A stretch of 64,000 bases of DNA from an uncultured Bacilli bacterium (GTDB lineage Bacteria > Bacillota_I > Bacilli_A > RF39 > UBA660): assembly GCA_947628535.1 (NCBI GenBank), contig CANRAF010000002.1, positions 41,200-105,199 on the forward strand, written 5' to 3'. A model generated the notes under the pieces. It was not told the DNA's origin, searched no databases, and worked only from the letters and a program-made list of their open reading frames with translations. Position 1 is the stretch's first letter. Each line of letters opens with the position of its first letter. Shown in pieces: positions 6,560-37,216 of this stretch. The translations under genes were made by a program, and so were the position numbers.

Positions 6560-6847
6560 TTAACTTGTTATGTAATCGTGATAACCTCCGAGAACATTTA
6601 CGACTTTATATCCCATATTATCTAATTTTGAACAAGTTTTTACACTTTCCATTCCTTGAGTACAGTATATATAATATTCTTTTGATTTATCTAAATATTT
6701 GCTTGGATCCATAAGTAGAAAATTATTTGGTATGTTTTTACTACTTGGAATGGATCCTAAATTATATAAATAATTTTTTCTAATATCTATTATATTTACT
6801 CTACCAACCATTCCTTTTAATTCACTTGCTTTTATGCTTTTATACAT
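6560..6847 (-). CDS. single-domain rhodanese-like sulfurtransferase
   Basis: 95 aa. Active-site cysteine loop YCTQGMES. Confidence 0.6.
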   Translation of the reverse strand: MYKSIKASELKGMVGRVNIIDIRKNYLYNLGSIPSSKNIPNNFLLMDPSKYLDKSKEYYIYCTQGMESVKTCSKLDNMGYKVVNVLGGYHDYITS

Positions 6848-6991: not shown

Positions 6992-9301
6992 TTATTCATC
7001 AAAGAAATCATCAAAGAATTGATCATCAGTTACTTTAAATTTAGAAACTTCTGAATCCTTTACTGGTTCTGCTTTTTTCATTTCTGGTATATTTTGCTTA
7101 TGTGGTATAGAATTTATCTCAGGAGCTTCTTCACTGTGAACTGTTATATTTGGCTTGCTATTTAAATCAGATTGTTCTTCTTTAGGATTTACATTATTTA
7201 TAAATCCGGCGAGCATAGTAGGTGCTATATCAGAAGCAGGAGAATTTTTTAAATCCGGTTTTTCTTCTTTTGTTTCCTCTATTTTGCTTTCTTCAGTTTC
7301 AGTTTTAATTTCTTCTTTAACTTCAGTTTGTTTCTTCTTTTTTTCGGCCTCTTTTGCCTTTAATTTTTCTGCTTCTTCTTGTTCTTCTTTTTCAAGTTCT
7401 GCTATTTTAGCATCTATTTTTTTGACTAAATCATCAACATTTAATGGTTCTTGGGTATCATGACTATTATTTACACTATTATTTGTCTTTAAGGCTTCAA
7501 AAGGATTATCAAATGGAGGCATCATTCCTCCAGGTATACCTGGCATAGAAGGTGCTCCTGCCATATTCATGAATTTATCTTTTCTTTTATTTTTCATAAA
7601 CTCTTTTAAATTAAAAACTTTAACATCCTTTTTTTCTCTTTCAACAAATGGATCAGCTTCAATTTTAGGTGATCCCCAATCTATTTCAAAATTAGGTTTA
7701 AGCCTTGTTTTATAAGGATTTAATCTAATTCTTTTAACTATTGCTTCAAACTTTTTCATTCTTTGAAGATCTGCTACTGTTGCAAGAGGACGAGTTTCTT
7801 CTCTTTCTTTTTCTCCTTTTCCTACTTTTACAATCTTATCTCCACATAACTCGCTTATTTCTTTAAGAGCTGCAAGTTCTGTAGTAAGCAGGTAAAGTAA
7901 ATTATTACAGTTACTTCTGATAGTTTGAGCATCTTCTTTTCCATAAACTGCATCTAATTGAGCAAAGTTTTGAATAATCATCGTAAATCTAATTAGTCTA
8001 GATCTAGCCGCAGTAATCATTGTTGTTATGTCCTTTAAAGGTGGCATATTAGCAAACTCATCTAGAATAAAGTTTGTTCTAATAGGAAGCTCTCCTTTTG
8101 GAGAATTTTGAGCAGTATCAATTAAAGATTCATAACATTGTTTGATAAAGATAGTTGCTAAGGCGTGATAAGTTTTCTTTTCATCTTGGATTATCATAAA
8201 AACTGCTGTTTTTTTCTTACCAATTGTATCAATATCAAAATCATTTTGAGAAAGCATTTCTGATAAGTTTTCACGTGATGAGAAAAGACGAATTTTTTGT
8301 CTAAATGTAGATAAAATAGAACCTTTTGTTTCTTCTGGTGCAAAAATTGTACCAGATGCACAGGTATAAGCAGCACCTGCAGGATCTTTATCGTTAAAGT
8401 ACTCTTTAATATAGGTGCTTCTGGCCCCAAACTTTTCTTCTCCAACTGTTGTCATAAGTGAAATACTATTAATATTTATTTCTTCTTCTTTAGCATCTTC
8501 AAAAAGCCCTAAAGCAAGTCCCGCAAAATAATCTGCTGAGGTTTTTTCCCAGAATGGATCTTTATTAGCACTTGATTCTTCATATAGAATATTAGCTGCT
8601 AAATCATCTAAAAGTTCCATAGCTTTATCAGTATTACCTTCTTTGTATAACTTATATGGAAGATGAAGCGGATTCCAAGTATTACCACGTTGTGGATCAC
8701 GGAAATTTAAAACAAGTATTTGGTATCCTCTTTGTTTTAAAAGGCCGGCACTTTCACGGTAAATTTCACCCTTAGGATCTGTTACAATCATTGATTCACC
8801 CTTTTTAGCAAGTATTTTTACTAATGGATGAATTATACACTGAGTTTTACCTGTACCAGTAGAACCAATTACTAAGTTGTGACTTTCTCCATCATCTACC
8901 CATAATTTTTGACCATTACTTACAATTGGAAATCCAGCATGTTCATAATTTTCATCACTAACATCAAGTTCTGATAAAGTTTTTTTCATTTCTTTATCAG
9001 TACACCATCTTGAAAAACCTTTTTCATCTTTTGGTTCAGATGAAATACCAAAACCCTTTTCCTGTTCAAAGAAGTAATTCTTTACTGTTGCAAACAAGAA
9101 AACCATGGCGAAGGCATAAAAAACGATAACTGCTGGTAAATTTTCAACTAGTGCTGTAAATGGATTAAGCCCGGCAAATGTTCCTTCATTAGCAAATGAA
9201 GAAATATTATTAACTAAAATTGATACTACTATTAAAAGAAGTAGTGCAAAAAGTGCAAATATCATCCAGTCTTGTGCTGAAGCTTTAAATTTTAGTTTCA
9301 T
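6992..9301 (-). CDS. type IV secretion coupling protein (VirD4/TraG/PcfC-like T4CP)
   Basis: Two N-terminal TM helices; Walker A LVIGSTGTGKT; Walker B FILDEFANM. About 230-aa K/E-rich low-complexity C-terminal tail ending DDQFFDDFFDE. RBS AAGGGAGGG. Confidence 0.8.
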   Translation of the reverse strand: MKLKFKASAQDWMIFALFALLLLIVVSILVNNISSFANEGTFAGLNPFTALVENLPAVIVFYAFAMVFLFATVKNYFFEQEKGFGISSEPKDEKGFSRWCTDKEMKKTLSELDVSDENYEHAGFPIVSNGQKLWVDDGESHNLVIGSTGTGKTQCIIHPLVKILAKKGESMIVTDPKGEIYRESAGLLKQRGYQILVLNFRDPQRGNTWNPLHLPYKLYKEGNTDKAMELLDDLAANILYEESSANKDPFWEKTSADYFAGLALGLFEDAKEEEININSISLMTTVGEEKFGARSTYIKEYFNDKDPAGAAYTCASGTIFAPEETKGSILSTFRQKIRLFSSRENLSEMLSQNDFDIDTIGKKKTAVFMIIQDEKKTYHALATIFIKQCYESLIDTAQNSPKGELPIRTNFILDEFANMPPLKDITTMITAARSRLIRFTMIIQNFAQLDAVYGKEDAQTIRSNCNNLLYLLTTELAALKEISELCGDKIVKVGKGEKEREETRPLATVADLQRMKKFEAIVKRIRLNPYKTRLKPNFEIDWGSPKIEADPFVEREKKDVKVFNLKEFMKNKRKDKFMNMAGAPSMPGIPGGMMPPFDNPFEALKTNNSVNNSHDTQEPLNVDDLVKKIDAKIAELEKEEQEEAEKLKAKEAEKKKKQTEVKEEIKTETEESKIEETKEEKPDLKNSPASDIAPTMLAGFINNVNPKEEQSDLNSKPNITVHSEEAPEINSIPHKQNIPEMKKAEPVKDSEVSKFKVTDDQFFDDFFDE

Positions 9302-9326: not shown

Positions 9327-11117
9327 TTATAGTCCTCCACCAGTTCCAAACGAATCTAATTCTTCTGGTGTAACTATTACTGTAATACGCATTCTACGGG
9401 ATCCACAAACAAATAAGGCTTCTCCCTGTGAATAACGTTTTATACTTTCTTTTTCATTATCATTTAAATCTATAAGCAATGAAAGATCTTCAACTGCTTG
9501 TTTTTTAAGGCCCATTACTAAATAATAAGATGCATTATCAAAGATTGCTTTTCCTTGAGTTATTACTGCCTGTGATGTAAAATCACTTGGTTGTTGTGTA
9601 ATTATTATATTTCCCGTATTGTATTTACGAGAACGTCTTTGAATTTGAGCTAAAAAGTCAGCTCCTAAAACATTTCCTCCAGAAAGAAGAACATGTGCTT
9701 CATCTACCATTAATACTGTGTTTTGTGTTGGGTCTAAACATAGACTCCAAGCATATTTTAAAACGTTAAATAATAGAGCATTTCTAATATTAACATCTGT
9801 ATTCATAAGTTCTCTAATATTGAATACTATGAAATTACTACGTGGTGATATAGTTGTTTTTCCATTAAAGTAAAATCTAAGTTCATTAGTAAGTGGTCTT
9901 ATTTTAAGTTCAAGCCTTTCCATTATATCACGTTCATGAGTCATATCTGTCATTGAAGTAAGTTTTCCTTTGATTGTTGTATATACGTCATCAAATGTTG
10001 GATAGTGTTCACTAGTAAATGTTGAAAAATCAGTATTAAATCCTATTCCAAATCTTTGATATGTCTCTTGAGTAAGTTCTATAAATAAATTAAGAACATC
10101 CTCTTCAATAGATGGATCATAGTATTTCATAAATGCTTTTAAAAACTGAAGTGTTTTGGTAAGAACTGTGTATCCAAGGCCTTGCCTTATTTCATCATCA
10201 TCAGCATCTATTAATACTTCAAATGGATTAATAAGTCCAAATTCGCCACCCTTTCCTAAATCTATTGTATCTCCACCAACGGCTTCAACCATTTCTTTAA
10301 GTTCGTTTTCAGGGTCGATTGCTACTATTTGATAACCGTTTCTTATAGCGGTTCTTAAAAGTAATTTAGCAGCAGTACTTTTACCTGAACCAGAAGTACC
10401 TAAAATAATCATATTAGCATTTACTCTGTTATGTTCTTTTCTCATTTGATATAGGAATTGGTTAAACATAACAACCCCACCAGAGAAATCTGTTCCAAGA
10501 AGAACTGAAGGCCCTGGATCTTTAATGCTATCAAATATATATGGATACATTCCAGCCATTGTAGGACTTGGCATAATTGTTCCAATTCGCTCTTCTACTT
10601 CTTGTTTTGGGAAAACTGGAATTATTGATTTTAAAACTTGTTCTTGTTCAAATCTTAAAGGAATTGCTCTAAGCTGCATAGCATCTAAATAGTTTTTAAC
10701 TTGAAGTTTTTTAAGATCTAAATCTTCTTTTGACTCGCCAGTTACTATAATATGCATTTGAAAATCAAACGTTTTTGATTGAGCAGCTGCAAGTTGTTGA
10801 ATGAATGATTCAAGTGTTTCATAGTCTTGTCTTATACTTTCTTGATATGTTGCATCTTTTTCTTCTTGATATCTTATTTTCATTGAAGCAAGTTCTTTAT
10901 TAAGCATTTTTGTTAAAGTTGAAAATGGTACAGGGATATGCTTAATTACTATTTTAACACCTGGCATATTAGTTATGTTTGATAAAAATCCTACACCGAC
11001 ATATCTAGGATAACCAACAACTGTTAAAATAGTCATGAATTTATCACTAGCAACTATCATGTTGCTGTTTGTAAAATCAAGCCCTTTTGGAGCCACTTCG
11101 CTTTTAAAGTAACTCAT
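9327..11117 (-). CDS. VirB4-family T4SS ATPase (TrsE/PrgJ/ConE-like), short 596-aa form
   Basis: Walker A GTSGSGKS; Walker B LMVDEAH. Has its own RBS GGAGGGG. ATGA start/stop overlap with the upstream 233-aa ORF. Confidence 0.8.
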   Translation of the reverse strand: MSYFKSEVAPKGLDFTNSNMIVASDKFMTILTVVGYPRYVGVGFLSNITNMPGVKIVIKHIPVPFSTLTKMLNKELASMKIRYQEEKDATYQESIRQDYETLESFIQQLAAAQSKTFDFQMHIIVTGESKEDLDLKKLQVKNYLDAMQLRAIPLRFEQEQVLKSIIPVFPKQEVEERIGTIMPSPTMAGMYPYIFDSIKDPGPSVLLGTDFSGGVVMFNQFLYQMRKEHNRVNANMIILGTSGSGKSTAAKLLLRTAIRNGYQIVAIDPENELKEMVEAVGGDTIDLGKGGEFGLINPFEVLIDADDDEIRQGLGYTVLTKTLQFLKAFMKYYDPSIEEDVLNLFIELTQETYQRFGIGFNTDFSTFTSEHYPTFDDVYTTIKGKLTSMTDMTHERDIMERLELKIRPLTNELRFYFNGKTTISPRSNFIVFNIRELMNTDVNIRNALLFNVLKYAWSLCLDPTQNTVLMVDEAHVLLSGGNVLGADFLAQIQRRSRKYNTGNIIITQQPSDFTSQAVITQGKAIFDNASYYLVMGLKKQAVEDLSLLIDLNDNEKESIKRYSQGEALFVCGSRRMRITVIVTPEELDSFGTGGGL

Positions 11118-11815
11118 ATTGGCATCACCCCTCCAGATTCATATTTTTTTCCTCCATTTAAGAAGTTATCTATTATCATTCTAAGATCGTCATTTGATGT
11201 TTGACTTGCCACAAGACCGGCACTGGCTAAACTATTTATCAAATTACGAAGTCTTTTTTGTAAAAGTTCTCCATTTTTTTCTTTAAACAGAATAAAGTAT
11301 TCAGTATCTACAACATCATTATTGATAAAATATTCTCCTTTTTGCATATCTTGTGAGATGAGTTTTCTTATTCTTTGATCTTGATTTTTATTATAAAGAA
11401 CTTGAAGTTCTGCTTGATAAACTGCGATATCTACAGGACGATCTGCTACTACTAACCAAAATTCAAAATCAATAGTGTTATAGAAATTCATAAGTCCTAT
11501 TAATGCATTATCCATGGAAACTTGGTCTAATATGAAAATGTTTCTAGGTTGTATTTTAACACCTGTAATCATTTCATTTCTATTATTATACATAATTCCA
11601 TTACTAATAGCTTTAAGTGGTAACCAATTTTCTGTATATTTGGGATTTTTTTGAGCGGCTTTTGGCATAACTTTGCCACTTTGTTTATTTTCCTCATTAT
11701 TATTTACAGGTGTATTTATACTATTTATACCCGAATTAACACTTTGATTTACTTGCCCATTTCCCGAATTATTCATCTGATTGTTCATATTTATAACACC
11801 AACCTCTCCATACAT
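11114..11815 (-). CDS. T4SS-associated protein of unknown function, translationally coupled to virB4
   Basis: 233 aa with an N/Q/S-rich low-complexity N-terminus and no TM segment. Its stop overlaps the virB4 start (ATGA). Might be a detached VirB4 N-terminal-domain-like protein. Confidence 0.4.
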   Translation of the reverse strand: MYGEVGVINMNNQMNNSGNGQVNQSVNSGINSINTPVNNNEENKQSGKVMPKAAQKNPKYTENWLPLKAISNGIMYNNRNEMITGVKIQPRNIFILDQVSMDNALIGLMNFYNTIDFEFWLVVADRPVDIAVYQAELQVLYNKNQDQRIRKLISQDMQKGEYFINNDVVDTEYFILFKEKNGELLQKRLRNLINSLASAGLVASQTSNDDLRMIIDNFLNGGKKYESGGVMPI

Positions 11816-12089
11816 ATTTTCTTCGGTTTACAAAGTAAAATTTATACATTTCATGAATAAATACTCTTGAATTATGATAATTTGCAATTGGGAATACTAG
11901 AAATGCTGAGATAAAGGCAGGAGTTAAAGTTATTATTGCTGCCCAAATCTCAATTATTGGGAGTATTGTAAAGAGTATAAATGATATTAATATTCCACTT
12001 GCCAATATTATCAAATCAAGTTTACTTAAAAAACCAAATATTAAACCTTGTTTTTTACTATTAGCAGGTACTAAATAATTGTAATCCAT
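11769..12089 (-). CDS. PrgI/TcpE-family small membrane protein (VirB3-like)
   Basis: 106 aa with two long hydrophobic helices. N-terminus YLVPANSKKQGLIFGF fits the PrgI-family pattern. Lies just upstream of the VirB4 gene, as VirB3 homologues do. Confidence 0.5.
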   Translation of the reverse strand: MDYNYLVPANSKKQGLIFGFLSKLDLIILASGILISFILFTILPIIEIWAAIITLTPAFISAFLVFPIANYHNSRVFIHEMYKFYFVNRRKYVWRGWCYKYEQSDE

Positions 12090-12112: not shown

Positions 12113-14659
12113 TTAACTTTTTTTAGAATAGTCATCAAACGCTTTTGCTTTACCATATTCAGTAGATTTTTGAACTGCAATAATTTCATCACTGTATTGA
12201 TTAGATTTATCTCTTGCAATTCCTTCTACATCTTCATATGCTGCAAAAGTTTGAACATCTCTTTCAGTTTTTCCAAGTTCTCTTTGAAGTGCTGTATTAA
12301 CTCTAAGTTCTGTCCTCATTTCTGTTTCGGCTTGTTCAATTTTTCCTTTTGCTGATTGTTCAAAATCTATTGATAAAACTTGTCCATTAGCACCAACATA
12401 TTTATCCGATTGACCAGAATCTATCCATTGTTGCCCATCATAATATTCAATATTGCCTTGACTATTTTTTCTATTTGTTTCATTTAAAGCAATGAAATCA
12501 CTTCGTTCTTTTTTGTAACCAGCTTTTCCTGTTTTTGTTACTTGATTACCATTTGCATCTATATACGTATAAGTATAATTATCTGGATCAAGTTCTAATT
12601 TTCTCTTTTTATCAGATAAAAAATTGGAACTCTCTGCTAAATTTTCTATATTATCTTTATGTTTTCTAAAATTGTCTAGTAATTCCTTTTTATCTACTTT
12701 ATCTTTAATTTGATTATCCATTTTAGTTTTTGGAGAATAACCTACAGTTCCTGCTACTCCTGCCACTGTTCTTTGCCAAAAACCTAATCCATTTTGCTTG
12801 GCATCATTTATTCTTGCATTCTTAGCAGCAATCTGGTTGGATCCACCTGTTATATTTCCTTTGGAGCCAGAACCTGCTCCTAAGGCTGCACCTTTAAAAG
12901 CACCACTTATTCTTCCAAGACCTTTCCCTGTTGCAAATCCAACAGCAGTTCCAAGTGCTCCGCCTGCGGCAAATCCTGCTGCACTTTTACCCATATTCAT
13001 AATATCTTTAAATGAACTTCCCATAGAATCAAGTCCAAATAATTTAGAAATCATACTAGGTAAAGCTTTTGCAAATACTAAAATTGCTACAATATAGAAA
13101 AATTTAATTAATAAGTTTTGTTCCCAAAAACTTTCTGATATTAATTTTAAAAGATCTACTGCAATAGCAATTGCAAACAACTTTATAAATAAATCTACAT
13201 AAATAGAAAGATACATTTTAACCCATTGATTAAATATTTTATCTTTGGGATTGACATAACTTATAATTGGAATTGGTGCAAGCATTTCGAGTAATAATAA
13301 TTTAAATCTACGGATAATTATATCAATACATAGAATAAGTAAATATACTATTAATCCAATACCAGCAACTAATGAAGCAATAAATCCTAAATTCAAAGTA
13401 TCATCTGACATTAATTCTATAATATTATCATTTGCTTCTGAGTTCTCAAACATATGTTCTTGCGCATTTTTACATTTTTCTTCTGACTCTTCATCTTCTG
13501 CACATTCTTGAAACGTTTTTGCAGTTGTTTGAGCAAACTTAATAGCTTCGTAAGAATGTTTTTCGCTTAATCCCTTAAAATATTTTTTACCACCATCAAA
13601 AGCACTAGTACTTGTATTTTTACCTATAAATAAATTATTAGTTTCAACCGAATGACTTGCTTGTTGCCCACTTGCATTCATCTTAAGGCCTTTAATCGCT
13701 TTTTCAAAATCATTATAGTTATTGTACCCTCCCATAATACCTATATTTTTACACGTTTGCGGTCCACTTGCAGTTACTACTTCAGAATCACAACCATCTA
13801 TTTCACCTTTAGGCATTGATTTTTGTGCCGAATATGTACTATCGCTTGTTTTTTTTAAATATTTTGGACAAGTAGTAGGAAAATTAGAAGAAGTTACATT
13901 AAATACAGTACCCATTGTTATTTTACCAGGGAAAGGTGAATAATAACCATTATCTGAATCTCCGTGAATTCGCTGATCACTTCTATCATAATAAGAAAAT
14001 TTGCATGTACCATCTCCACAATTTAATTTCCCAGTTGGCCCAGTATCTGGGTTATTATAAAATTCAATCTTATATACATCATTTATTACATAAGAATGGG
14101 TCCAATTAGTACCCACTAAATTTTTCTTATGTGATTTAACATTTATGTAATAACAAGTTAACTTTTCATTTGCAGCATAAACATCATCCACAAGTAATTT
14201 AGATTTAGAACTCATATTATCTGAATGTTTTTCTTTTATACTACTAACAGGCATTAATCGATTTATCAGACCATCATCAGCGAGAATTGCCTGTTCAACT
14301 TCAATTAATAAACCGTCCTTTTTATTAAAAATTATAAAATCTGGCGATAACGCTATTAATAGAATTATACATGTTACAATACGCTTTATCATTTTACCTG
14401 CGCCAGCTTCTTTGTCACTTACTGTATCAGGATTAATAATCATTTGAAGCATACCTATTGTAACTCTAAATAGCATAAATACCCCTGCTAACACGTATAT
14501 TGTTTGGGTAAAATTAAAGTTTAAACTAGCAAATGCATTACCATCGTTACGAACTAACTCTAATAAAATATCATATATTCTAGCAACTAATGTGTATAGG
14601 CCTGCAATTATATTAAATAAAACACTTGCAACAATTTCATTAAATAACAATATTTGCAT
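12113..14659 (-). CDS. VirB6/TrbL-like polytopic T4SS channel protein with a large Cys-rich extracytoplasmic domain
   Basis: 848 aa. N-terminal TM helices; a hydrophilic domain of about 280 aa with at least 12 Cys (CGDGTC, TTCPKY, DGCDSE, QTCKNIG, FQECAEDEESEEKCKN); 5-6 more TM helices; a Gly-rich segment; and a hydrophilic C-terminal extension of about 270 aa. RBS AGGAGG. Confidence 0.55.
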   Translation of the reverse strand: MQILLFNEIVASVLFNIIAGLYTLVARIYDILLELVRNDGNAFASLNFNFTQTIYVLAGVFMLFRVTIGMLQMIINPDTVSDKEAGAGKMIKRIVTCIILLIALSPDFIIFNKKDGLLIEVEQAILADDGLINRLMPVSSIKEKHSDNMSSKSKLLVDDVYAANEKLTCYYINVKSHKKNLVGTNWTHSYVINDVYKIEFYNNPDTGPTGKLNCGDGTCKFSYYDRSDQRIHGDSDNGYYSPFPGKITMGTVFNVTSSNFPTTCPKYLKKTSDSTYSAQKSMPKGEIDGCDSEVVTASGPQTCKNIGIMGGYNNYNDFEKAIKGLKMNASGQQASHSVETNNLFIGKNTSTSAFDGGKKYFKGLSEKHSYEAIKFAQTTAKTFQECAEDEESEEKCKNAQEHMFENSEANDNIIELMSDDTLNLGFIASLVAGIGLIVYLLILCIDIIIRRFKLLLLEMLAPIPIISYVNPKDKIFNQWVKMYLSIYVDLFIKLFAIAIAVDLLKLISESFWEQNLLIKFFYIVAILVFAKALPSMISKLFGLDSMGSSFKDIMNMGKSAAGFAAGGALGTAVGFATGKGLGRISGAFKGAALGAGSGSKGNITGGSNQIAAKNARINDAKQNGLGFWQRTVAGVAGTVGYSPKTKMDNQIKDKVDKKELLDNFRKHKDNIENLAESSNFLSDKKRKLELDPDNYTYTYIDANGNQVTKTGKAGYKKERSDFIALNETNRKNSQGNIEYYDGQQWIDSGQSDKYVGANGQVLSIDFEQSAKGKIEQAETEMRTELRVNTALQRELGKTERDVQTFAAYEDVEGIARDKSNQYSDEIIAVQKSTEYGKAKAFDDYSKKS

Positions 14660-14674
14660 AATTAACCTCCTATA

Positions 14675-15004
14675 CTATAGCCCTATTTTACAAACACCAG
14701 ATGTTAGTCCTGCCATATACAATATAAAATTCAAAACTACTGGAACAAAAAAGATTGCTACTCCAATTACAATTCTTTTTACTGTTCTTGTAAGAGCAGT
14801 TTTCATATCTTTTTCTTCTTGAGAAATTACTGCCTGAACCATATCAACACTACATAAAGCAATTACTAAACATGGTGTTGCTATTTGTATCCAGGAAAAT
14901 ACTTTTGTTAAAATATCTCTAAAGTCAGCTCCAAGTAAATTACAATCACTTTGAGTAGGAAAATTAACTAAAAAATTTATATTGTTAATTATAAAATCTA
15001 ACAT
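14675..15004 (-). CDS. small two-helix membrane protein, VirB2/TrbC-like putative T4SS pilin (paralogue 3)
   Basis: 109 aa. Shares the second-helix motif IGVAIFFVPVV with the two upstream paralogues; Cys near the C-terminus (SGVCKIGL). Confidence 0.4.
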   Translation of the reverse strand: MLDFIINNINFLVNFPTQSDCNLLGADFRDILTKVFSWIQIATPCLVIALCSVDMVQAVISQEEKDMKTALTRTVKRIVIGVAIFFVPVVLNFILYMAGLTSGVCKIGL

Positions 15005-15095
15005 TTAAATCACCTTCACAGTATTCATCTATTTTATTATAACAAAAAAAAAAGCACAAGACAATAAGTTTTGTACTTTTATTTACATATTTTTA

Positions 15096-15512
15096 TTAAC
15101 TTTTACCCTTACATGAATTGGCATTAGGCTTTGACACACAAGCTAAACATTTATTGTAATTATCATCAGCTTGGTTCTCTGCTCCAGATACCATACCAAA
15201 TATTATTTGTACAATAACTACTACAAAGAATATTGCTACCCCATAAATAATTCTCATAAGTAACATTTTTTGGGCTTCTTTTATTTTTTTATCTTCTCCA
15301 GCCATTACTGCTTTACCTAAATCAATTGTACCAAGTAAAACGATAATTACGGGGATAATGATTTTCATTACATTTACTATTTGTCCAACAAATTGCCAAA
15401 TTATTAAAGTTTTTTCACAAAAATTATCTGATGTTTGTAGTGTTGCACCACTACCAGCTTTTGCTAAAAACTGAATAATATCCATTGGCATTGCACTTAA
15501 AAATTCTAACAT
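15096..15512 (-). CDS. small two-helix membrane protein, VirB2/TrbC-like putative T4SS pilin (paralogue 2)
   Basis: 138 aa. IIPVIIVLLGTIDLGKAVMAGEDKKIKEAQK is nearly identical to the loop of 15585..16022. C-terminal tail CLACVSKPNANSC. Confidence 0.45.
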   Translation of the reverse strand: MLEFLSAMPMDIIQFLAKAGSGATLQTSDNFCEKTLIIWQFVGQIVNVMKIIIPVIIVLLGTIDLGKAVMAGEDKKIKEAQKMLLMRIIYGVAIFFVVVIVQIIFGMVSGAENQADDNYNKCLACVSKPNANSCKGKS

Positions 15513-15584
15513 ATTAATCTCTCCTTCTATCTATAACTATAATACTATATATAATACTGCTGTGTCAAACATTTTTTTTTAATT

Positions 15585-16022
15585 TTACACTTCTTCTCTT
15601 CCATATAAATTATCTTGGTTTATATCTTCATTTTCTTGTTGACTATTTTCATCATAATTATTTATCTCATTTTCTTGATTACTTTTAGATTCTTCAACAT
15701 ATTTTAAACAATTTTTGCTGTGTGGTTTAGTTGCACATTCCCAGCATATTTTATAATCACCTTCATCTGTTTCAACTCCGAGAAGGCCAAATATTACTTC
15801 TACAATTGTAAATATAAAGAATATTGCTACCCCATAAATTAATCTTCTAATGAATGCTTTTTGGGCTTCTTTTATTTTTTTATCTTCTCCAGCCATTACT
15901 GCCTTACCTAAATCAAGCGTACCTAAAAGAATAATTATAACTGGTATAATAATTCTAATTATATATATAATTTCACCGACAAAATTCCATGCGGCAGCAC
16001 TATCGGCACAAAAGGTATCCAT
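15585..16022 (-). CDS. small two-helix membrane protein, VirB2/TrbC-like putative T4SS pilin (paralogue 1)
   Basis: 145 aa. Helix-loop-helix IIPVIIILLGTLDLGKAVMAGEDKKIKEAQK. C-terminal CWECATKPHSKNC tail followed by an acidic N/E-rich end. RBS GGTGG. Confidence 0.45.
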   Translation of the reverse strand: MDTFCADSAAAWNFVGEIIYIIRIIIPVIIILLGTLDLGKAVMAGEDKKIKEAQKAFIRRLIYGVAIFFIFTIVEVIFGLLGVETDEGDYKICWECATKPHSKNCLKYVEESKSNQENEINNYDENSQQENEDINQDNLYGREEV

Positions 16023-16210
16023 TAAACCACCACCAAACTACTTGGAAAGTATATCATAATATATGTTAAATGTCAATTAAAATACAATTAAATTTAAATT
16101 TCATAAGATTAACTAAGTAAAATTTATAATATAATAACTATCTTTTTATTTGCTGTAATTTTAAACATTATTTTATTTAAATATTTATTTTATTTTTTAA
16201 ATGTGTTATT

Positions 16211-16657
16211 ATGTATCTTGAGGTGTTAATATTGAAAAAATTTAGATGGTTAATAATACTTGCTATTATTATTATTGCTTTAGTTGCTGTTATCTTTATA
16301 TTTTCTAATGATGAAAGCAAATATATTCATGAAATATCTTTTAGTGAAGTTGTTAATAAAATAGAAAATAAAGATGATTTTATTCTTTATATTAAACAAA
16401 ATGGATGTGAACATTGTAGAGCATTTACTCCTAACTTTGTAAGTGTGTTAAGTGATAATAATTTAGAAGCTTATGCTCTTAATCTTAGTGATATTTCTGA
16501 AGAAGATAATGAATCTTATGAAGAAATGTTTGATATTGATGGAACTCCAACAGTACTATTCTTTGATGATGGTAATGAAAGTTTAATTAGAATTAGTGGT
16601 GAACAAACTAAAGCAAATATTAAATCAAAACTTGAAGCAACTAAATTTATAAAATAG
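16211..16657 (+). CDS. membrane-anchored thioredoxin-like thiol-disulfide oxidoreductase
   Basis: N-terminal TM anchor followed by a CxxC active site (NGCEHCRAF); 148 aa, TlpA/ResA/StoA-like. The true start may be the TTG at 16232, which follows a GAGGTG RBS. Confidence 0.6.
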   Translation: MYLEVLILKKFRWLIILAIIIIALVAVIFIFSNDESKYIHEISFSEVVNKIENKDDFILYIKQNGCEHCRAFTPNFVSVLSDNNLEAYALNLSDISEEDNESYEEMFDIDGTPTVLFFDDGNESLIRISGEQTKANIKSKLEATKFIK

Positions 16658-16705
16658 AACTATATGTTCTATTTTTTTTATAAAAAAAAGGAATTAAATT
16701 CCTTA
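16657..16705. terminator. pair of back-to-back terminators between the convergent thioredoxin gene and the pbp gene
   Basis: AGAAC-TATAT-GTTCT followed by T8 (plus strand). AAGGAAT-TAA-ATTCCTT preceded by A8, which reads as T8 on the minus strand. Confidence 0.55.
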
Positions 16706-18817
16706 TTTTAAAGTAAAAGTAACTTTCATATTTTTACTTACTTTTTTATTTACAATAGACTGATCTTTTACATATCCATATCCTTTGAAGCTACATTTTA
16801 GATTTAACATATCACAGACTGCTTCTGCTTCTCCTTTACTATATCCAGTTAAAGATGGCATATTATAACTTTTACTATTTGTTAAAAGAATAAGATTATC
16901 ATTAGAATCAATAGTAGTATTTTTATTTGGATATTGATTTACTACTTTTGATCCTGTTCCAATAATTAATTTGTCTATACCTTTGGTTAATGATTTTACT
17001 CTTTCGACACTTTTATTTAAATAATTCCCTACTATTTTATTATGAATAGTAGTATCTTTTTCTTCTTCTTCGAAAATATTTAAATATTTATTCATATTTT
17101 TTACAATATCTGTTACTGAATCACTTAATACATTTGCACTACTTGGACGTTTACTTGAAGCATATATAATTACTTTTGGATTATTTTTAGGCCACATTCC
17201 CATAAATGATTTAGTAACGTTATAATCATCTTCATAGTAACTACCTGTATTTGAATTAACAAGTTGTGCTGTTCCTGTTTTACCAATTAAATTTGAATTT
17301 TTTACTCTATAAGCTGAACCTGTTGCTCCATACCAATTAGAATTTACTGTTTTATACATAAGTTCACGTATTTTTAAAGCTGTTTTTTTAGAGGCAACTC
17401 TATCTACTTCTTCTCTTTTTCCTTTATAGACAACTTTACCAGTTTCATCTATTACTTTATCTATTATATATGGTTTAAGCATAATTCCATCATTAGCAAT
17501 TGATGTTAGGGCTTGAACATGCTGCATTGGAGTTGTTGTTATACCTTGACCAAATGATGCATTATATACTTCTGTTTCATAATTAAATCTTATCTGTCCT
17601 GGTACTTCACCTGCGAGAGTTATACCAGTTTTTTTTCCAAATCCTATTTTTGTAAAATAATCATTTAATATTGTTTTATTAATAAAGTTATTTACGATAT
17701 TAATTACTCCGACATTACTTGACGCTTGAAATCCTTGATCGTATGTTATTCTTCCGAAACCTCCTGCTAACCAGTCATTAATTACTGTCCCATCTTCTGC
17801 TTCATATCTTCCAGAGGTAAATTTACTATCTCCTCTGTAGGTTCCTGCTTCCATTGCTGCCATATAAGTGTAAGTTTTCATTATTGATCCTGGTTCATAA
17901 GCTTCACCTACTGTAATATCAGTCCAGTTTTTTATATTTTTTTTATTTGGATCAAAAGATGGCTTTTGACTACTTCCTAAAATTTTTCCTGTTTTAGCAT
18001 CCGCAACTATTAATGTTAACCAGTCAAAATCATATTTACTATCGACATCACTTGCAGCTTGTTCTAAGAAAAATTGTACATTTGAATCAATTGTTAAGTA
18101 AATATCGTTTCCATCTATTGCTTTTATAGTAACCTCTTTTGTTCCAGGTATTTTATAGCCATTTAAATCTTTTTGATAAGTTGTATAACCATCTGTTCCT
18201 GAGAGAACATCATTTAGTAAGGCTTCCATGCCAAATTCTCCATTAATTTTACCTTCTTCATCTGATTTAGCATATCCAAGAGTATAAGATGTAAAGTCTC
18301 CATTTGGATAGTAACGTTTTTCATTTTGAATAAAATCAATACCTGGTAGATTTAAAACTTCTATTTTTTCCTTTTCAAGTTCTGTAAGTTCTTTACCTGA
18401 GCTACCAAATTCTACTTGATATCTTCCTTTTTGATTTAATATTTTATATATTTCACTTTCTTTCATGTCAATTACTTTAGATAATTTTTTAGCAGTCATT
18501 TTTTTATCTTTGACATGATATAACTTGCTTTCACCTTCACTTCTCGAAGGATCTAAGTATGCTATTAATGTATATGATGAAACATTAATTGCTAAGGCTT
18601 CTCCATTTGAATCGTAAATGTTCCCTCTTTTAGCATATATTTTTTTAGATACAACGCTTCTGCTATCTGCAAATTCTTTTAAATTTACACCATCTACTTC
18701 TTTAGAAAGTGCGAGAAAAGATACTCTATAACTTAAAAATAAAAAACAAAAAAGAGCAATAACAATAAACAAATTTATTAATTTATTGCTTTGTTTTGCT
18801 CTTTTCATTTTAATCAC
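16703..18817 (-). CDS. class B penicillin-binding protein (FtsI/PBP2B/SpoVD family) with C-terminal PASTA domain
   Basis: 704 aa with an N-terminal TM anchor and a transpeptidase domain; PASTA-like C-terminus. Last gene of the mraZ-rsmH-ftsL-pbp operon. Confidence 0.85.
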   Translation of the reverse strand: MIKMKRAKQSNKLINLFIVIALFCFLFLSYRVSFLALSKEVDGVNLKEFADSRSVVSKKIYAKRGNIYDSNGEALAINVSSYTLIAYLDPSRSEGESKLYHVKDKKMTAKKLSKVIDMKESEIYKILNQKGRYQVEFGSSGKELTELEKEKIEVLNLPGIDFIQNEKRYYPNGDFTSYTLGYAKSDEEGKINGEFGMEALLNDVLSGTDGYTTYQKDLNGYKIPGTKEVTIKAIDGNDIYLTIDSNVQFFLEQAASDVDSKYDFDWLTLIVADAKTGKILGSSQKPSFDPNKKNIKNWTDITVGEAYEPGSIMKTYTYMAAMEAGTYRGDSKFTSGRYEAEDGTVINDWLAGGFGRITYDQGFQASSNVGVINIVNNFINKTILNDYFTKIGFGKKTGITLAGEVPGQIRFNYETEVYNASFGQGITTTPMQHVQALTSIANDGIMLKPYIIDKVIDETGKVVYKGKREEVDRVASKKTALKIRELMYKTVNSNWYGATGSAYRVKNSNLIGKTGTAQLVNSNTGSYYEDDYNVTKSFMGMWPKNNPKVIIYASSKRPSSANVLSDSVTDIVKNMNKYLNIFEEEEKDTTIHNKIVGNYLNKSVERVKSLTKGIDKLIIGTGSKVVNQYPNKNTTIDSNDNLILLTNSKSYNMPSLTGYSKGEAEAVCDMLNLKCSFKGYGYVKDQSIVNKKVSKNMKVTFTLK

Positions 18818-22790: not shown

Positions 22791-23693
22791 TTAATTTAAA
22801 TCATTAAGTTCTTTAATTGAAAAACCTGTACATTCTTCTACTATTTTAATATCAATTCCTTTGTTTAACATATTTTTGGCAATTTGTTTTTCTTTGTTTT
22901 TATTTTCTTTTTCCATTTTTTTTGTTTCTTCCTTTAACATCTCTTTAACCATTTCTTTAGTTCTTTTTTTGACCATTTTTTCAGCCCTTTCCTCTGCCAT
23001 TGCTATCATTGTTAATTCCTGTTTTGTGTAATCATCATATGACTCTACTTTCCCGTTTATCGCATCCATATACTTTTTCATATCCATCAATCTTTCATCT
23101 CCCTTTACTATCTTTTCTATTTCTTCTTCCTTTCTTGTTGTTAATATCTTACATATCTTTTCAAACTCCGTCATTTCTTCTTTATTATATATCTTTTTCT
23201 TATAATATGAAAGATTTATATGAAATATTTTTATTAGACCACTATATATTCTGCTTTCTATGCTCTCTTCTCTTATACTATATTTGTATATCCCTTTCCC
23301 CTTTTTCTCTATATCATAACTATCAAAGTTTATTTGTATTACCTCTAAACTGTTTTCTATTATCATCCTTCTTAGATGACTTATATTTCTTTCTATTAAT
23401 TTTTTACTATATACTCTATTACACTCTATTGATATATATTTATCATTTACTTTTACATAATAGTCACATACTTCTCCTTTTTTATTTTTTCCTTTGGCTA
23501 TAAATCCTGGATCTTTTTCTTCAAATTCTTTTAATTCTATTCCTAAGAGTTCTTTTACTATTACTTTTATTAAGAAATGATCTTTATCACTTTTAAAGAT
23601 ACTTTTAAATACTACATCACTCATTGGATCAATATAATCATATTTAGCTTCTTCTCTTAAGAATTGTTTTTCTGCGTCTGTTAATATTTTCAT
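22791..23693 (-). CDS. Rpn-family PD-(D/E)XK recombination-promoting nuclease/putative transposase (Transposase_31-like)
   Basis: 300 aa. N-terminal nuclease-fold region (YIDPMSDVVFKSIF...). K/E-rich helical C-terminal half ending GFSIKELNDLN, as is usual for this family. Confidence 0.55.
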   Translation of the reverse strand: MKILTDAEKQFLREEAKYDYIDPMSDVVFKSIFKSDKDHFLIKVIVKELLGIELKEFEEKDPGFIAKGKNKKGEVCDYYVKVNDKYISIECNRVYSKKLIERNISHLRRMIIENSLEVIQINFDSYDIEKKGKGIYKYSIREESIESRIYSGLIKIFHINLSYYKKKIYNKEEMTEFEKICKILTTRKEEEIEKIVKGDERLMDMKKYMDAINGKVESYDDYTKQELTMIAMAEERAEKMVKKRTKEMVKEMLKEETKKMEKENKNKEKQIAKNMLNKGIDIKIVEECTGFSIKELNDLN

Positions 23694-31235: not shown

Positions 31236-32282
31236 TTAGACTCTAGTATAAGTTGCTGCTGAATATTTACTATATACCCTCTTTCCATTTACCATTTTAT
31301 AAGCTTTAACACGATAATATGTTCCGCTTCCCTTTTTTAGGTTATATGATGTTGTTGTAGAAAGTTTAGTAGTTGATTTTATATAGTAATATTGTTTATT
31401 TTTAGTATTATATTTAAATACTGCATATCCACTTGCACCTGTTACTTTTTTCCAAGTGATTTTGGCAACTCCACTTCTATATTTTGTTGCTTTTACTTTA
31501 GTTGGAGTACTTGGAATAGGTTTTACAGCTATTACTTTAGAAAGTTTAGTATAATATTTTTTACCTGTTGTAGGACTTTTTACATAAGCTCTTATTTTGT
31601 AGTAATATGTAGTTCCTGTTTTTAACCCTTTTGATAAGTTTACGCTTATATGTGCTGTTGTATAAGTATAGTATTCATACTTTTTACTTTTTGGATTATA
31701 TTTATAGATTTGAATAGCATCATAATCTGCATCACTTTCCCATCTTATTTTTATTTTATTGTAAGAAACAGATGAAGCTTTTACATCATAAATCTCTGGA
31801 AGAATAACTCCGTCTGCTCCTATAGTTGCTTTCTTTCCAGGTTCGAAAGTGTATACTCCTACTCTATTGTAATTACTATCTAATAAATACCAAGTAACTT
31901 CATATAGGTCATAGCTTTCCCAGTATTTTTGATCTAAAGTAAAATCAGCTGTAGTTAAAGATGATGGAACGTCTACAAATACAAAAAGTGCTTTTTTAAA
32001 TGCTCCTGTTTCTATAGTTGTGACTCCCTCAGGAATATAAAGTTCACTAGAAATTACTCCATCAAAAGCATTACTTCCAATTGTTGTAATTTTTGTGCCA
32101 TTTATTGTCGCAGGTATTTTAATAATATCATATTTATTCCCACATTTATAATTAGTTATTTTTGCATTATTACTAGAATCTACTTCAAAACATGAAATTG
32201 GGGCATCAGCATAAACATTTGATAATCCAAAAATACTAAATACAAAACCTATAAAAAATACAAAAATTAGTTTTCTTTTCAT
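31236..32282 (-). CDS. secreted surface protein: BspA-type leucine-rich repeats followed by fibronectin type III-like repeats
   Basis: Signal peptide. LRR_5-like segments (IPATINGTKITTIGSNAFDG..., IPEGVTTIETGAFKK) then two Fn3-like modules (KIKIRWESDADYDAIQIYKYN; KITWKKVTGASGYAVFKYN). Confidence 0.55.
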   Translation of the reverse strand: MKRKLIFVFFIGFVFSIFGLSNVYADAPISCFEVDSSNNAKITNYKCGNKYDIIKIPATINGTKITTIGSNAFDGVISSELYIPEGVTTIETGAFKKALFVFVDVPSSLTTADFTLDQKYWESYDLYEVTWYLLDSNYNRVGVYTFEPGKKATIGADGVILPEIYDVKASSVSYNKIKIRWESDADYDAIQIYKYNPKSKKYEYYTYTTAHISVNLSKGLKTGTTYYYKIRAYVKSPTTGKKYYTKLSKVIAVKPIPSTPTKVKATKYRSGVAKITWKKVTGASGYAVFKYNTKNKQYYYIKSTTKLSTTTSYNLKKGSGTYYRVKAYKMVNGKRVYSKYSAATYTRV

Positions 32283-36067: not shown

Positions 36068-37216
36068 CTATCTTATATATTTTTTTGTTAAATAATCTTT
36101 ATTTGGTTTTATATTTTCTTTAAAAAATGAAAAATCATTATCTAAAAAGCCAATATCTTCAAACATTTGTCTATCACTTATAAGTGCTTGGTTTGATAAA
36201 AAGTTTTTAATTTCTTTTAATCCTTCTTTTTTATCCTGTTTATAAATTTTAAAAAAGTATTCTGCTATTAATGAACCATAGCCATAATGTATTAAATTTA
36301 GATAGTTTTCAACATCTTCAAACTCAAATGCGAATTCTCTTCCTTTATTATATTCTTTATAGCAGTCATAATCTATGATTTGATAATATTGATCATCAAA
36401 AATACAAGAACCATTAATACATGCAAAAACAACAAAGTTTAAATGCATTAAATTACAAAAAATATCTTCATTTTTTAAATACAAACTTCTTTCCGCATCA
36501 TCATAAAAAATTCTATTTTCAATTAAAAAATCAATAAATATTCTCTCAAAAAATTCAGACATTACTTCACTAAAACTATAATAGTACCTAAACATTTGTT
36601 GATTTGAGGACATTGATCTCATAAATTCATTTTCATAGGAATGACCGATCTCATGGACTAAAGTTTGAAGATATGTAACTGAAGGACTATTCCCATTTTC
36701 TAAAGAAATCTTATCTGGTTCAATTCCTAATCCGTTTATACATGTACCTAAATATTCTGATTCATATTCTGAATCTTCAGGTTTAAAATTTTCAGTTAAT
36801 ATTATATTATTTGAATTTTTTAGATTATTATAAATTGCTCCAGAAGCTGAATCTACACTATTTAAGAACTCTAATAGTATTTCTTCTTCTTTTTTACTTG
36901 ATACTTTATTTTTTGGATATAATGATGCAAACGTATCATTATAATACCCTAACTCTTTATACACATCATAAATTTTACTTGTTATATTTAAATGAATATC
37001 AAAATTACTTATAAGCAGATCATAATACCCGCTATCTAAAATTAACCTACTATTTGCCTTTTTGCCAAACAGCTTTTTATAATACTTTATCTTTTCTTTT
37101 TCATCTAATCGAGCATAATATATGCATATAAGATTACTTATCATCCATCTTTTAGCACTACTTTTTTCATACTCTAATTTTTCTAAAAGTTCATCTATTT
37201 TATTCATCAAAACCAC
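36068..37216 (-). CDS. cytoplasmic HExxH zinc-metallopeptidase-like protein
   Basis: TLVHEIGHSY, with a downstream Glu-containing segment (SEVMSEFFE) that could supply the third zinc ligand. No signal peptide; 382 aa. Confidence 0.4.
   Translation of the reverse strand: MVLMNKIDELLEKLEYEKSSAKRWMISNLICIYYARLDEKEKIKYYKKLFGKKANSRLILDSGYYDLLISNFDIHLNITSKIYDVYKELGYYNDTFASLYPKNKVSSKKEEEILLEFLNSVDSASGAIYNNLKNSNNIILTENFKPEDSEYESEYLGTCINGLGIEPDKISLENGNSPSVTYLQTLVHEIGHSYENEFMRSMSSNQQMFRYYYSFSEVMSEFFERIFIDFLIENRIFYDDAERSLYLKNEDIFCNLMHLNFVVFACINGSCIFDDQYYQIIDYDCYKEYNKGREFAFEFEDVENYLNLIHYGYGSLIAEYFFKIYKQDKKEGLKEIKNFLSNQALISDRQMFEDIGFLDNDFSFFKENIKPNKDYLTKKYIR

Follow-up and report, generated by a model that had tools for sequence, protein, structure and literature searches.

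The stretch of DNA considered here, 64,000 nucleotides from an uncultured Bacilli bacterium of the RF39 lineage (assembly GCA_947628535.1, contig CANRAF010000002.1, positions 41,200 to 105,199; hereafter the window), contains three small adjacent genes on its minus strand, designated pilA, pilB and pilC. The open reading frames (ORFs) occupy positions 15585-16022 (pilA, 145 residues), 15096-15512 (pilB, 138 residues) and 14675-15004 (pilC, 109 residues). They lie directly upstream of genes for VirB6-like, PrgI/VirB3-like, VirB4 and VirD4 components of a type IV secretion system (T4SS), all on the same strand. A sequence-only reading of the window had described them as three tandem, diverged pilin candidates of the VirB2/TrbC type, and the ORFs are present with exactly the sizes and positions that it gave. 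The three are paralogues, with pairwise identities of 56% and 30-37%, and pilA resembles the family T4SS_pilin. PilA and pilB are 56% identical (E 1e-29), and their cores form a 203-nt direct repeat with 79% identity at the DNA level. PilC is the most diverged of the three and is 37% identical to pilB across the core (E 1e-11).

A purine-rich, Shine-Dalgarno-like sequence is found just 5' of each gene (GGTGGTGG, AGGAGAG and GAAGGTGA, read directly from the sequence). Sigma-70-like promoter matches are located on the minus strand upstream of pilA (16048-16076; TTGACA-17-TATACT with TG, 11/12, a consensus match only), pilB (15539-15568; TTGACA-18-TATTAT, 11/12) and pilC (15036-15064; TTGTCT-17-TATAAT with TG, 10/12), the total of such matches in this AT-rich stretch being not higher than the shuffled expectation. 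A terminator scan found none on the coding strand between the pilin genes. The pilC stop is 15 nt ahead of the start of the VirB6-like gene, and pilA starts 1.4 kb upstream of that gene.

The three proteins belong to a large family. A profile made from them has 752 matches at E≤1e-3 in an indexed protein database, and an exhaustive profile search yields 9,385 representatives of 50%-identity clusters at this threshold and 4,804 at E≤1e-10. With these numbers, and with homologues at a corresponding place in the gene order of dozens of genomes, the observation is far beyond chance. The Pfam family PF18895 (T4SS_pilin) is described by a 71-position model with a gathering cut-off of 26.6 bits. It is matched at E≤0.01 by 65 of 141 family members collected from 74 related genome loci (best 1.8e-9); the next-ranking transmembrane family is matched by 14 of the 141. 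Among 148 representatives, PF18895 is the sole transmembrane family matched at E≤1e-5. A syntenic homologue from one of the loci (L046:2724-3074) scores 32.1 bits, which is over the cut-off, and matches pilA in phmmer with an E of 1e-20. The subfamily of this homologue is mostly precomputed as PF18895, and the proteins near the three from the window are left unannotated by Pfam. When the window family is aligned by HHalign to 27 PF18895-annotated proteins of this sister subfamily, the probability is 99.86% (E 5e-31, 112 columns). The scans of the relatives, the syntenic homologue and the HHalign result together indicate, at the level of sequence profiles, that the window proteins are divergent members of the PF18895 superfamily.

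Each of the three proteins has two strongly hydrophobic segments, a loop with 5-7 lysines or arginines, and acidic ends that hold the outer cysteines. The motifs quoted for them in the sequence-only reading are present. Its cysteine-containing tails also all exist, but they were listed out of step with the protein sizes: CLACVSKPNANSC belongs to the 138-residue protein, CWECATKPHSKNC plus an acidic tail to the 145-residue protein and SGVCKIGL to the 109-residue protein. PilA starts with MDTFC and lacks an N-terminal extension or leader. Its two hydrophobic helices and basic loop are followed by a C-x2-C-x4-H-x3-C motif and a long, acidic, low-complexity tail, the final residues of which are EEV. 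PilB has a short, uncharged N-terminal extension of 30 residues (MLEFLSAMP...) and a short Cys-rich C-terminal end. PilC, also with a short uncharged N-terminal extension, has a single outer Cys per side (C21 and C105) and ends in GVCKIGL. A further Cys, which the sequence-only reading had missed, stands directly before helix 1 (FC or DC). It is invariant in an alignment of 29 sequences and at least 90% conserved in alignments of 141 and 148 sequences.

The positive-inside rule, applied to the Lys/Arg loop and the acidic ends, predicts for all three proteins a two-helix topology with both ends outside and the basic loop in the cytoplasm. This topology agrees with what is found in relatives, several of which have Sec-type signal peptides right before the N-side Cys (judged by eye), while others have large domains fused at one end or the other. 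AlphaFold2 models of pilB and pilC are helical hairpins, composed of residues 31-71 and 74-111 in pilB (pLDDT 74) and of residues 21-61 and 64-102 in pilC (pLDDT about 74). The loop and helix 2 are near-invariant across the homologues and the ends are variable.

The distribution of the outer cysteines follows a simple pattern. Exactly four Cys are present in 117 of 120 close homologues. In a set of 189 small family members, 168 have exactly one N-side Cys, 182 have 1, 3, 5, 7 or 9 C-side Cys, and the outer total is even in 172. The commonest combinations, N side plus C side, are 1+3 (82 members) and 1+1 (70 members). A gene for a membrane-anchored thioredoxin-fold protein (148 residues, active-site motif CEHC, Pfam Thioredoxin) is located at 16211-16657 on the plus strand, divergent from the pilin genes. 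The protein is predicted to have an N-in anchor and a catalytic domain outside. The thioredoxin-like gene adjoins the pilin array in 21 loci, and because the PBP2B neighbour that it has in the window is common to only 3 of these 21, it moves with the module and not with the cell-division cluster. The Cys parity and this co-travelling, outward-facing protein suggest a disulfide that joins the N-side Cys to a C-side Cys, with the remaining C-side Cys paired among themselves. The VirB6-like protein has a predicted outer loop of 326 residues with 8 Cys and a C-terminal tail of 314 residues with 0 Cys. The thioredoxin-like protein is a candidate thiol-disulfide oxidoreductase for both the pilins and the VirB6 loop, and oxidative folding of exposed parts is the best reading of the Cys data, the VirB6 loop cysteines and the thioredoxin-like gene taken together.

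The sequence-only reading had left open whether the outer tips are stabilised by disulfides or by metal. The C-x2-C-x4-H-x3-C motif of pilA does resemble a zinc knuckle, with a spacing near that of the CCHC type, and in pilA and pilB the cluster together with the N-side Cys could bind metal in place of forming disulfides; the four Cys of nearly all close homologues would suit such a site. However, pilB and many homologues have another residue in place of the His, and in the 70 members with one Cys per side the two cysteines are too few for chelation of a metal but enough for one disulfide. The predicted extracytoplasmic location beside an exported thioredoxin-fold protein also speaks for disulfides. 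Metal binding is therefore improbable, and of the two possibilities only the disulfide is consistent with the 1+1 pattern.

The thioredoxin-like protein suggests another alternative. In NCBIfam it is closest to PedC/BrcD, a disulfide isomerase of bacteriocin maturation (E 1.7e-11, sub-threshold), followed by a weak match to F-type TrbB (E 2.4e-3, also sub-threshold). The three small, hydrophobic, Cys-bearing proteins might then be bacteriocin-like, immunity or holin-like peptides, unrelated to secretion and matured by a PedC/BrcD-like isomerase. This is extremely unlikely, because the homologues usually adjoin VirB6, VirB3 and VirB4 genes across dozens of genomes and are strongly related to PF18895 at the profile level. 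Neither a bacteriocin exporter nor a double-glycine leader is present, and scans of Pfam, NCBIfam and PHROGs gave no match to a holin or immunity family (nor, in NCBIfam or PHROGs, to a pilin or a fitting phage family). A better match to such a family, or to any other, was named in the sequence-only reading as grounds for abandoning the pilin assignment; none was found and on this point the assignment stands.

Downstream of pilC, all on the minus strand, the T4SS genes follow in close succession. The VirB6-like polytopic membrane protein (12113-14659, 848 residues) matches Pfam TrbL_4 above the cut-off (E 6e-8); its nearest NCBIfam models, MMCAP2_0566 and Mbov_0396, both from integrative and conjugative elements (ICEs) of mycoplasmas, are sub-threshold. 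The PrgI/VirB3-like small membrane protein (11769-12089, 106 residues) matches Pfam PrgI with an E of 1e-5 and 26.4 bits against a cut-off of 27. VirB4 is divided between two ORFs. The first, 233 residues (11114-11815), aligns to positions 98-280 of NCBIfam VirB4_plasma (E 1.9e-12) and represents the N-terminal domain, and the second, 596 residues (9327-11117), aligns to positions 298-889 (E 4e-99) and represents the C-terminal part of the ATPase. The latter also matches the CD1110 family (E 1e-46) and Pfam TraG P-loop and AAA_10. The PrgI/VirB3-like ORF aligns to positions 4-94 of the mycoplasma model in which VirB3 and VirB4 are fused. Within 9327-12089 the ORFs overlap by 47 nt (PrgI-like and 233-residue) and by 4 nt (233- and 596-residue). 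Since the same three ORFs, the 233-residue one included, are again separate in almost all related loci that extend into this section of the cluster, the split of VirB4 is a conserved feature and not a frameshift. The last gene of the series encodes a VirD4-type coupling protein (6992-9301, 769 residues; Pfam T4SS-DNA_transf E 5e-54; NCBIfam conju_CD1115 320.9 bits, cut-off 250). The VirB4 models matched, from mycoplasma ICEs and from the Firmicute CD1110 family, agree with an affiliation to the MPF_FATA class, as judged by NCBIfam matching.

The module is surrounded by housekeeping genes. PBP2B, FtsL, MraW and MraZ (dcw genes) are on one side, and a rhodanese, together with NusA, IF2 and RbfA of the nusA-infB operon, is on the other. 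The G+C content of the T4SS genes is 30-32% and that of the flanks 25-29%. No transposase or integrase was found in the flanks of the module, and ten more large ORFs across the window (RelA/SpoT, MutL, cell-wall enzymes and others) include neither a relaxase nor an integrase. Neither a VirB8-like gene nor a gene for a VirB1-like hydrolase could be recognised within the T4SS cluster. Since no such hydrolase is recognised there, an 839-residue protein with Peptidase_M23, SpoIID and Peptidase_C39_2 domains, encoded 25 kb from the cluster (40457-42976, minus strand), is perhaps of interest as a wall hydrolase. Beside it, at 43056-45446 on the minus strand, a 796-residue protein with SpaA-fold repeats and a dockerin domain is encoded. 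The rhodanese, a single-domain protein of 95 residues without a hydrophobic segment (by eye), is directly 3' of VirD4 (6560-6847, minus strand). Of 11 related loci with sufficient sequence beyond VirD4, 5 have it at this place, distant ones included. It may belong to the module, as a further sulfur or redox protein at its opposite border, or may be just a case of conserved synteny. Three further minus-strand ORFs have no Pfam match, 22791-23693 (300 residues) at a threshold of E≤0.01, and 31236-32282 (348 residues) and 36068-37216 (382 residues) at E≤1e-6.

The 74 related loci were recovered from species-representative genomes and are labelled in the style of L046 above. Most come from metagenome-assembled genomes (MAGs) of gut or rumen that are titled uncultured Bacilli, Tenericutes, Mollicutes or Mycoplasma sp.; Mycoplasma sp. 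CAG:611, Clostridium sp. CAG:433 and Bacillales UBA660 are among them. In GTDB, CAG-611, CAG-433 and CAG-1000 are families within the order RF39 (PMC8035907). The gene order, pilin or pilins, VirB6, VirB3, VirB4 N-terminal ORF and VirB4, is kept in about 45 of the 74 loci, with VirD4 next where the locus extends far enough. One, two or three pilin genes precede VirB6 in 11, 21 and 13 loci, respectively. The upstream flanks in L021 and L022 contain other housekeeping genes, identified by their similarity to window genes (RelA, MutL; MurG, MurB, DivIB). Where flanks are readable, the module is situated among housekeeping genes, at a position that varies between lineages. A tblastn search with pilB against 72,556 plasmids gave no match, and a literature search found no paper describing an RF39 T4SS. 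Ten contigs (L003, L007, L011, L013, L015, L016, L048, L053, L066 and L070) contain a low-GC, Bacilli-type locus under Lachnospiraceae, Bacteroidaceae or Muribaculaceae MAG titles, which probably reflect mis-binning or mislabelling and not the true hosts.

The related loci permit the three genes to be assigned to classes. In other species the orthologues of pilA are 72-82% identical to it, as compared with 56% for pilB in the same genome, and the orthologues of pilB are 60-65% identical. Class A proteins lack an N-terminal extension and have a low-complexity acidic tail, rich in Glu, Asn, Asp, Lys and Ser, that differs between species. Nevertheless, 94 of 102 long-tail homologues end in [DE][DEK][VLMAI] (EEV, EEA, EEL, DEM or DEL), and this terminal acidic-acidic-hydrophobic tripeptide (in the window, part of the pilA tail at 15585-15720) could be a processing or recognition signal. 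Class B proteins have a short uncharged N-terminal extension and a short tail. Class C proteins have a G-x-C-x-I-G end, and their genes abut VirB6. Pairs of pilC and VirB6 have been duplicated as a unit in L029, L034 and L039, and L036 has three VirB6-like ORFs with one pilC-type gene detected. The joint duplication in three lineages suggests that the products of pilC-type and VirB6-like genes work as a pair. In more distant lineages the pilC position is occupied by a protein of 360-600 residues in which a leader, signal-peptide-like by eye, and a large ectodomain precede a pilin domain at the C terminus. The suggestion that the window proteins could be receptor-binding minor subunits is plausible only by analogy with these proteins, but the pilC of the window has no ectodomain.

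Arrays of pilin paralogues in Bartonella and Anaplasma have been read as sources of antigenic variation, and the tandem arrangement, the 203-nt common core and the variable, surface-exposed ends would allow a similar reading here, in which recombination with the adjacent copies would replace or switch the one pilin gene that is expressed. Such variation, which the sequence-only reading had also raised, is very unlikely. The A, B and C orthologues of other species are closer than the paralogues at home, and all three genes have start signals and promoter-like sites of their own. A repeat search for invertible or shufflon-like elements gave weak AT-rich matches only, without inverted repeats at the borders of an invertible segment, and a recombinase gene was not found nearby. 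Because each class has orthologues closer than the local paralogues, a fixed division of labour between old, diverged and specialised paralogues is favoured by the sequence comparisons.

Some members of the family occur in other contexts. In 9-11 distant loci (L011, L016, L049, L052, L054, L056, L066-L068, L071 and L073) a conserved set of about six genes, wholly absent from the window, is found just upstream of the pilin gene. The ATPase of this set is closest to CpaF (PDB 8rkd, E 2.4e-18) and then to VirB11 (E 7e-16), and two polytopic membrane proteins of the set are TadB/TadC-like by eye. These may be hybrid Tad-like/T4SS loci, or the ATPase may be a VirB11 substitute. Membership in a Tad/CpaF-type pilus was rejected for the window, where the Tad-like cluster is absent; VirB6 is a far more consistent neighbour, and the proteins have two helices as opposed to the single Flp-type helix. 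Searches of PDB sequences with four upstream ORFs of L018 and L022 found no matches. Orphan pilin-family genes, with no T4SS gene detected nearby, are present in L040 and also in L030, L032, L038, L041 and L061. L040 contains both an orphan (9926-10372) and a fused version of 426 residues (16029-17309), one positioned after ezrA and the fused one after recX.

Fusions are common in the family. Many members have 360-600 residues and consist of a large N-terminal domain, with a signal-peptide-like leader by eye, and a C-terminal pilin domain (for example, L046:3162-4784, L047:10335-11900, L050:10437-12128, L059:10362-12098, L060:514-2322, L064:9287-10405 and L038:4680-6392). Other members have the pilin domain first, followed by a C-terminal extension. 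A pilin-domain protein of L038, a locus without a detected T4SS gene, has a weak VWA match, and single members among the 50%-identity representatives have Amidase_3, endolysin-like, Peptidase_C39_2 or GDSL-lipase domains. It seems that the pilin domain serves to anchor modules that resemble adhesins or hydrolases.

In the literature searched, a comparable chromosomal arrangement is described only for the ultra-small Patescibacteria. Patescibacteria, including Saccharibacteria, have a chromosomal, mostly relaxase-less, MPF_FATA-related T4SS with 2-11 tandem, strongly diverged VirB2-like genes (found via PF18895 and PF04956) beside virB6, virB3 and virB4. The pilin arrays are essential in the T4SS of Southlakia epibionticum (Saccharibacteria), and a 2025 review called Patescibacteria unique among monoderms in possibly building T4SS pili. 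The window shares with these bacteria a monoderm, chromosomal and probably MPF_FATA-related T4SS, with no relaxase nearby (here, among the genes identified across the 64 kb), and tandem diverged pilin genes by virB6, virB3 and virB4, here three with 30-56% identity. The likeness of the pilins themselves lies in the gene arrangement and in the homology of the window family to PF18895-annotated proteins. There are also clear differences. The host here is a low-GC, RF39-type member of the Bacilli, VirB4 is split in two ORFs, and VirD4 is present, whereas the S. epibionticum system has no recognisable coupling protein. The conserved N-side and C-side Cys pair and the linked thioredoxin-like gene have no counterpart in the Patescibacteria paper, which mentions neither disulfides nor thioredoxin. 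No description was found, in the literature searched, of the RF39-type setting, of a coupling protein within a chromosomal system of this kind, of the split VirB4 or of the Cys pair with a thioredoxin-like partner.

A second relevant system is the PrgF protein (PrgF_B2) of the Enterococcus faecalis plasmid pCF10, which has two transmembrane helices, is encoded near virB6, is essential for conjugation and has been modelled as a pilus on a VirB6 pentamer (bioRxiv 10.64898/2025.12.18.695078). According to the same preprint, of December 2025, 95% of 174 Gram-positive plasmid classes have comparable candidates with two helices close to virB6. Its criteria are a length of 50-150 residues, two predicted transmembrane helices, a short charged cytoplasmic loop, closeness to a VirB6-like gene and a confident multimer model (ipTM above 0.65) in which the subunits form a tube on a VirB6 pentamer. 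By sequence, predicted topology and gene position, pilA, pilB and pilC have the first four of these properties, and resemble PrgF_B2 in being small proteins with two helices and a charged loop whose genes lie near that for the VirB6-like protein of a Gram-positive T4SS. Unlike them, PrgF is encoded by one gene only, on a relaxase-bearing conjugative plasmid, has no Cys and no PF18895 match, and has no detectable sequence similarity to them; the window has three paralogues in a chromosomal setting without a detected relaxase. The preprint and the Patescibacterial arrays have made two premises of the sequence-only reading out of date. VirB2-like genes no longer count as atypical for Firmicute T4SSs, since PrgF-type proteins are reported from most Gram-positive conjugative plasmids and VirB2-like proteins are proposed for most Gram-positive T4SSs, and three paralogues in a row are not unusual, since tandem arrays were already described in Patescibacteria.

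VirB2 and TrbC (MPF_T, IncP) have the same succession of helix, short basic loop and helix with both ends outside, and their genes are likewise just upstream of virB3-virB4. The N and C ends of the T-pilin and of RP4 TrbC are reportedly joined by cyclisation, as Eisenbrandt et al. described in 1999. The window proteins differ in that they have no detectable sequence relation or Foldseek match to VirB2/TrbC, pilA has no long signal peptide, cysteines are present in place of peptide cyclisation and there is no TraF-like peptidase. In NCBIfam, the VirB6-like and VirB4 proteins come closest to the models of the mycoplasma ICE T4SS (Mbov_0396/Mbov_0397), and the PrgI-like, 233-residue and VirB4 ORFs together cover the fused mycoplasma VirB3-VirB4 model end to end. 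Unlike in the mycoplasma ICE, the genes are split and not fused, the scores are below the family cut-offs and the flanks are housekeeping genes. Finally, the thioredoxin-like protein is comparable to dedicated oxidoreductases such as F-plasmid TrbB and PedC/BrcD, in that an exported thioredoxin-fold protein is encoded beside genes for products with paired outer Cys. It is below the cut-off of both families, and its functional link to the pilins is suggested by gene linkage and Cys statistics. BdbDC of B. subtilis, which acts on ComGC, is another dedicated thiol-disulfide oxidoreductase for a pilus or secretion subunit.

Taken together, pilA, pilB and pilC are probably long-separated, specialised PF18895 paralogues that serve as VirB2-like subunits of a chromosomally fixed, Gram-positive-type (mycoplasma-ICE or MPF_FATA-like) T4SS in an RF39-like gut member of the Bacilli. 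Each pilin would insert into the membrane as a helical hairpin, with the conserved basic loop DLGKAVMAGEDKKIKEAQK toward the cytoplasm and both ends outside. The outer cysteines would then be oxidised by the neighbouring extracytoplasmic thioredoxin-like protein, so that the single N-side Cys is bonded to a C-side Cys and the leftover C-side Cys pair with one another. The resulting disulfide staple at the open end of the hairpin would be a topological mimic of the head-to-tail cyclisation of T-pilin and TrbC. The subunits would be pulled from the membrane and stacked on the VirB6-like platform as a short tube, whose lumen would be lined by the conserved loop and whose outer face would bear the variable ends, for example the acidic tail of pilA. 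This placement matches the conjugative-pilus model, given the near-invariant loop and helix 2 and the variable ends. PilC would most likely be a minor subunit, either VirB6-proximal or at the tip, and pilA and/or pilB would most likely be the bulk subunits. VirB4 and VirD4 would drive transfer to an adjacent cell by means of the tube, and the cargo could be DNA or protein.

Several results weigh against this explanation. As single sequences all three proteins miss the PF18895 cut-off (pilC 18.4, pilB 16.6 and pilA 10.3 bits, full-length matches), and hydrophobic families of the G-protein-coupled-receptor type reach similar sub-threshold scores. Because unrelated transmembrane families score alike, a single-sequence Pfam scan alone is not evidence; the T4SS_pilin profile check proposed in the sequence-only reading is borne out for the family but not for the individual proteins. 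Moreover, PF18895 members are pilins by prediction only. The window proteins have no match to PF04956 (TrbC/VirB2) at E≤1, and this model is weakly matched by 2 of 37 and 3 of 141 relatives, the control, Agrobacterium VirB2, scoring 63 bits. HHalign finds no relation of the window family to 8 annotated plasmid VirB2/TrbC proteins (0.27%) or to pCF10 PrgF (0.35%), and the PF18895 subfamily itself gives 0.55% with VirB2/TrbC. A profile search of PDB sequences returned opioid-receptor and ion-channel noise only. The structure check likewise returned no pilin: a Foldseek search of the two AlphaFold2 models against the PDB, which has little power for a two-helix fold, found generic helical hairpins (E≥0.9) and no solved conjugative pilin. 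The pilin assignment is thus upheld in part, by PF18895 homology, topology and gene position, and fails on detectable similarity to PF04956; 'VirB2-like' denotes architecture, gene position and family name rather than a demonstrated common ancestry with PF04956. The lack of a recognised VirB1-like hydrolase or VirB8-like gene and the zinc-knuckle resemblance of pilA, both mentioned above, are further points of this kind. Polymerisation is inferred, as are the disulfide bonds and the part played by the thioredoxin-like protein.

These results leave room for a different function, in which the three proteins are integral-membrane accessory subunits around VirB6 and VirB3 and never polymerise into an extracellular pilus. 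Their link to pilins is by family name and architecture, with no similarity to solved pilins, and by the preprint's own statement no monoderm T4SS pilus has been visualised to date. The coupling of pilC to VirB6 and their co-duplication fit a stoichiometric membrane partner equally well. On the other hand, the ends of many relatives carry large secreted or adhesin-like domains, and it is the outer ends that vary while the loop is invariant. In the analogous PrgF system, transfer is blocked when loop residues are labelled from the outside, an argument for the extraction of the protein from the membrane. A purely membrane-embedded role is therefore considered unlikely, and the pilus subunit explanation is preferred.

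A wider and more tentative proposal, on balance doubtful, is that the RF39-type Bacilli of the gut, which form a large uncultured lineage of reduced genome size, have a domesticated, chromosomal, relaxase-less T4SS with a pilus of three specialised VirB2-like subunits, each made pseudo-cyclic by a disulfide from a dedicated exported thioredoxin-like enzyme. Such a system would be used for contact-dependent exchange, as in Saccharibacteria, and not for plasmid transfer.

The locus represents a third setting for VirB2-like proteins, a chromosomally fixed T4SS with a pilin array in uncultured gut Bacilli of an ordinary phylum, and the family behind it comprises about 9,400 50%-identity clusters. 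If the pilins do not form a pilus, this family is still a conserved, unexplained T4SS component. If they do, the locus would provide a testable handle on the interaction of RF39 bacteria with their neighbours, the disulfide staple would be a simple chemical alternative to pilin cyclisation, and a thioredoxin-like assembly factor would have been identified. Should the wider proposal also be true, a domesticated T4SS with a stapled pilus would imply a cell-associated or episymbiotic lifestyle for RF39, and would be a candidate relative, on the Firmicute/Tenericute side, of the Patescibacterial T4SS.

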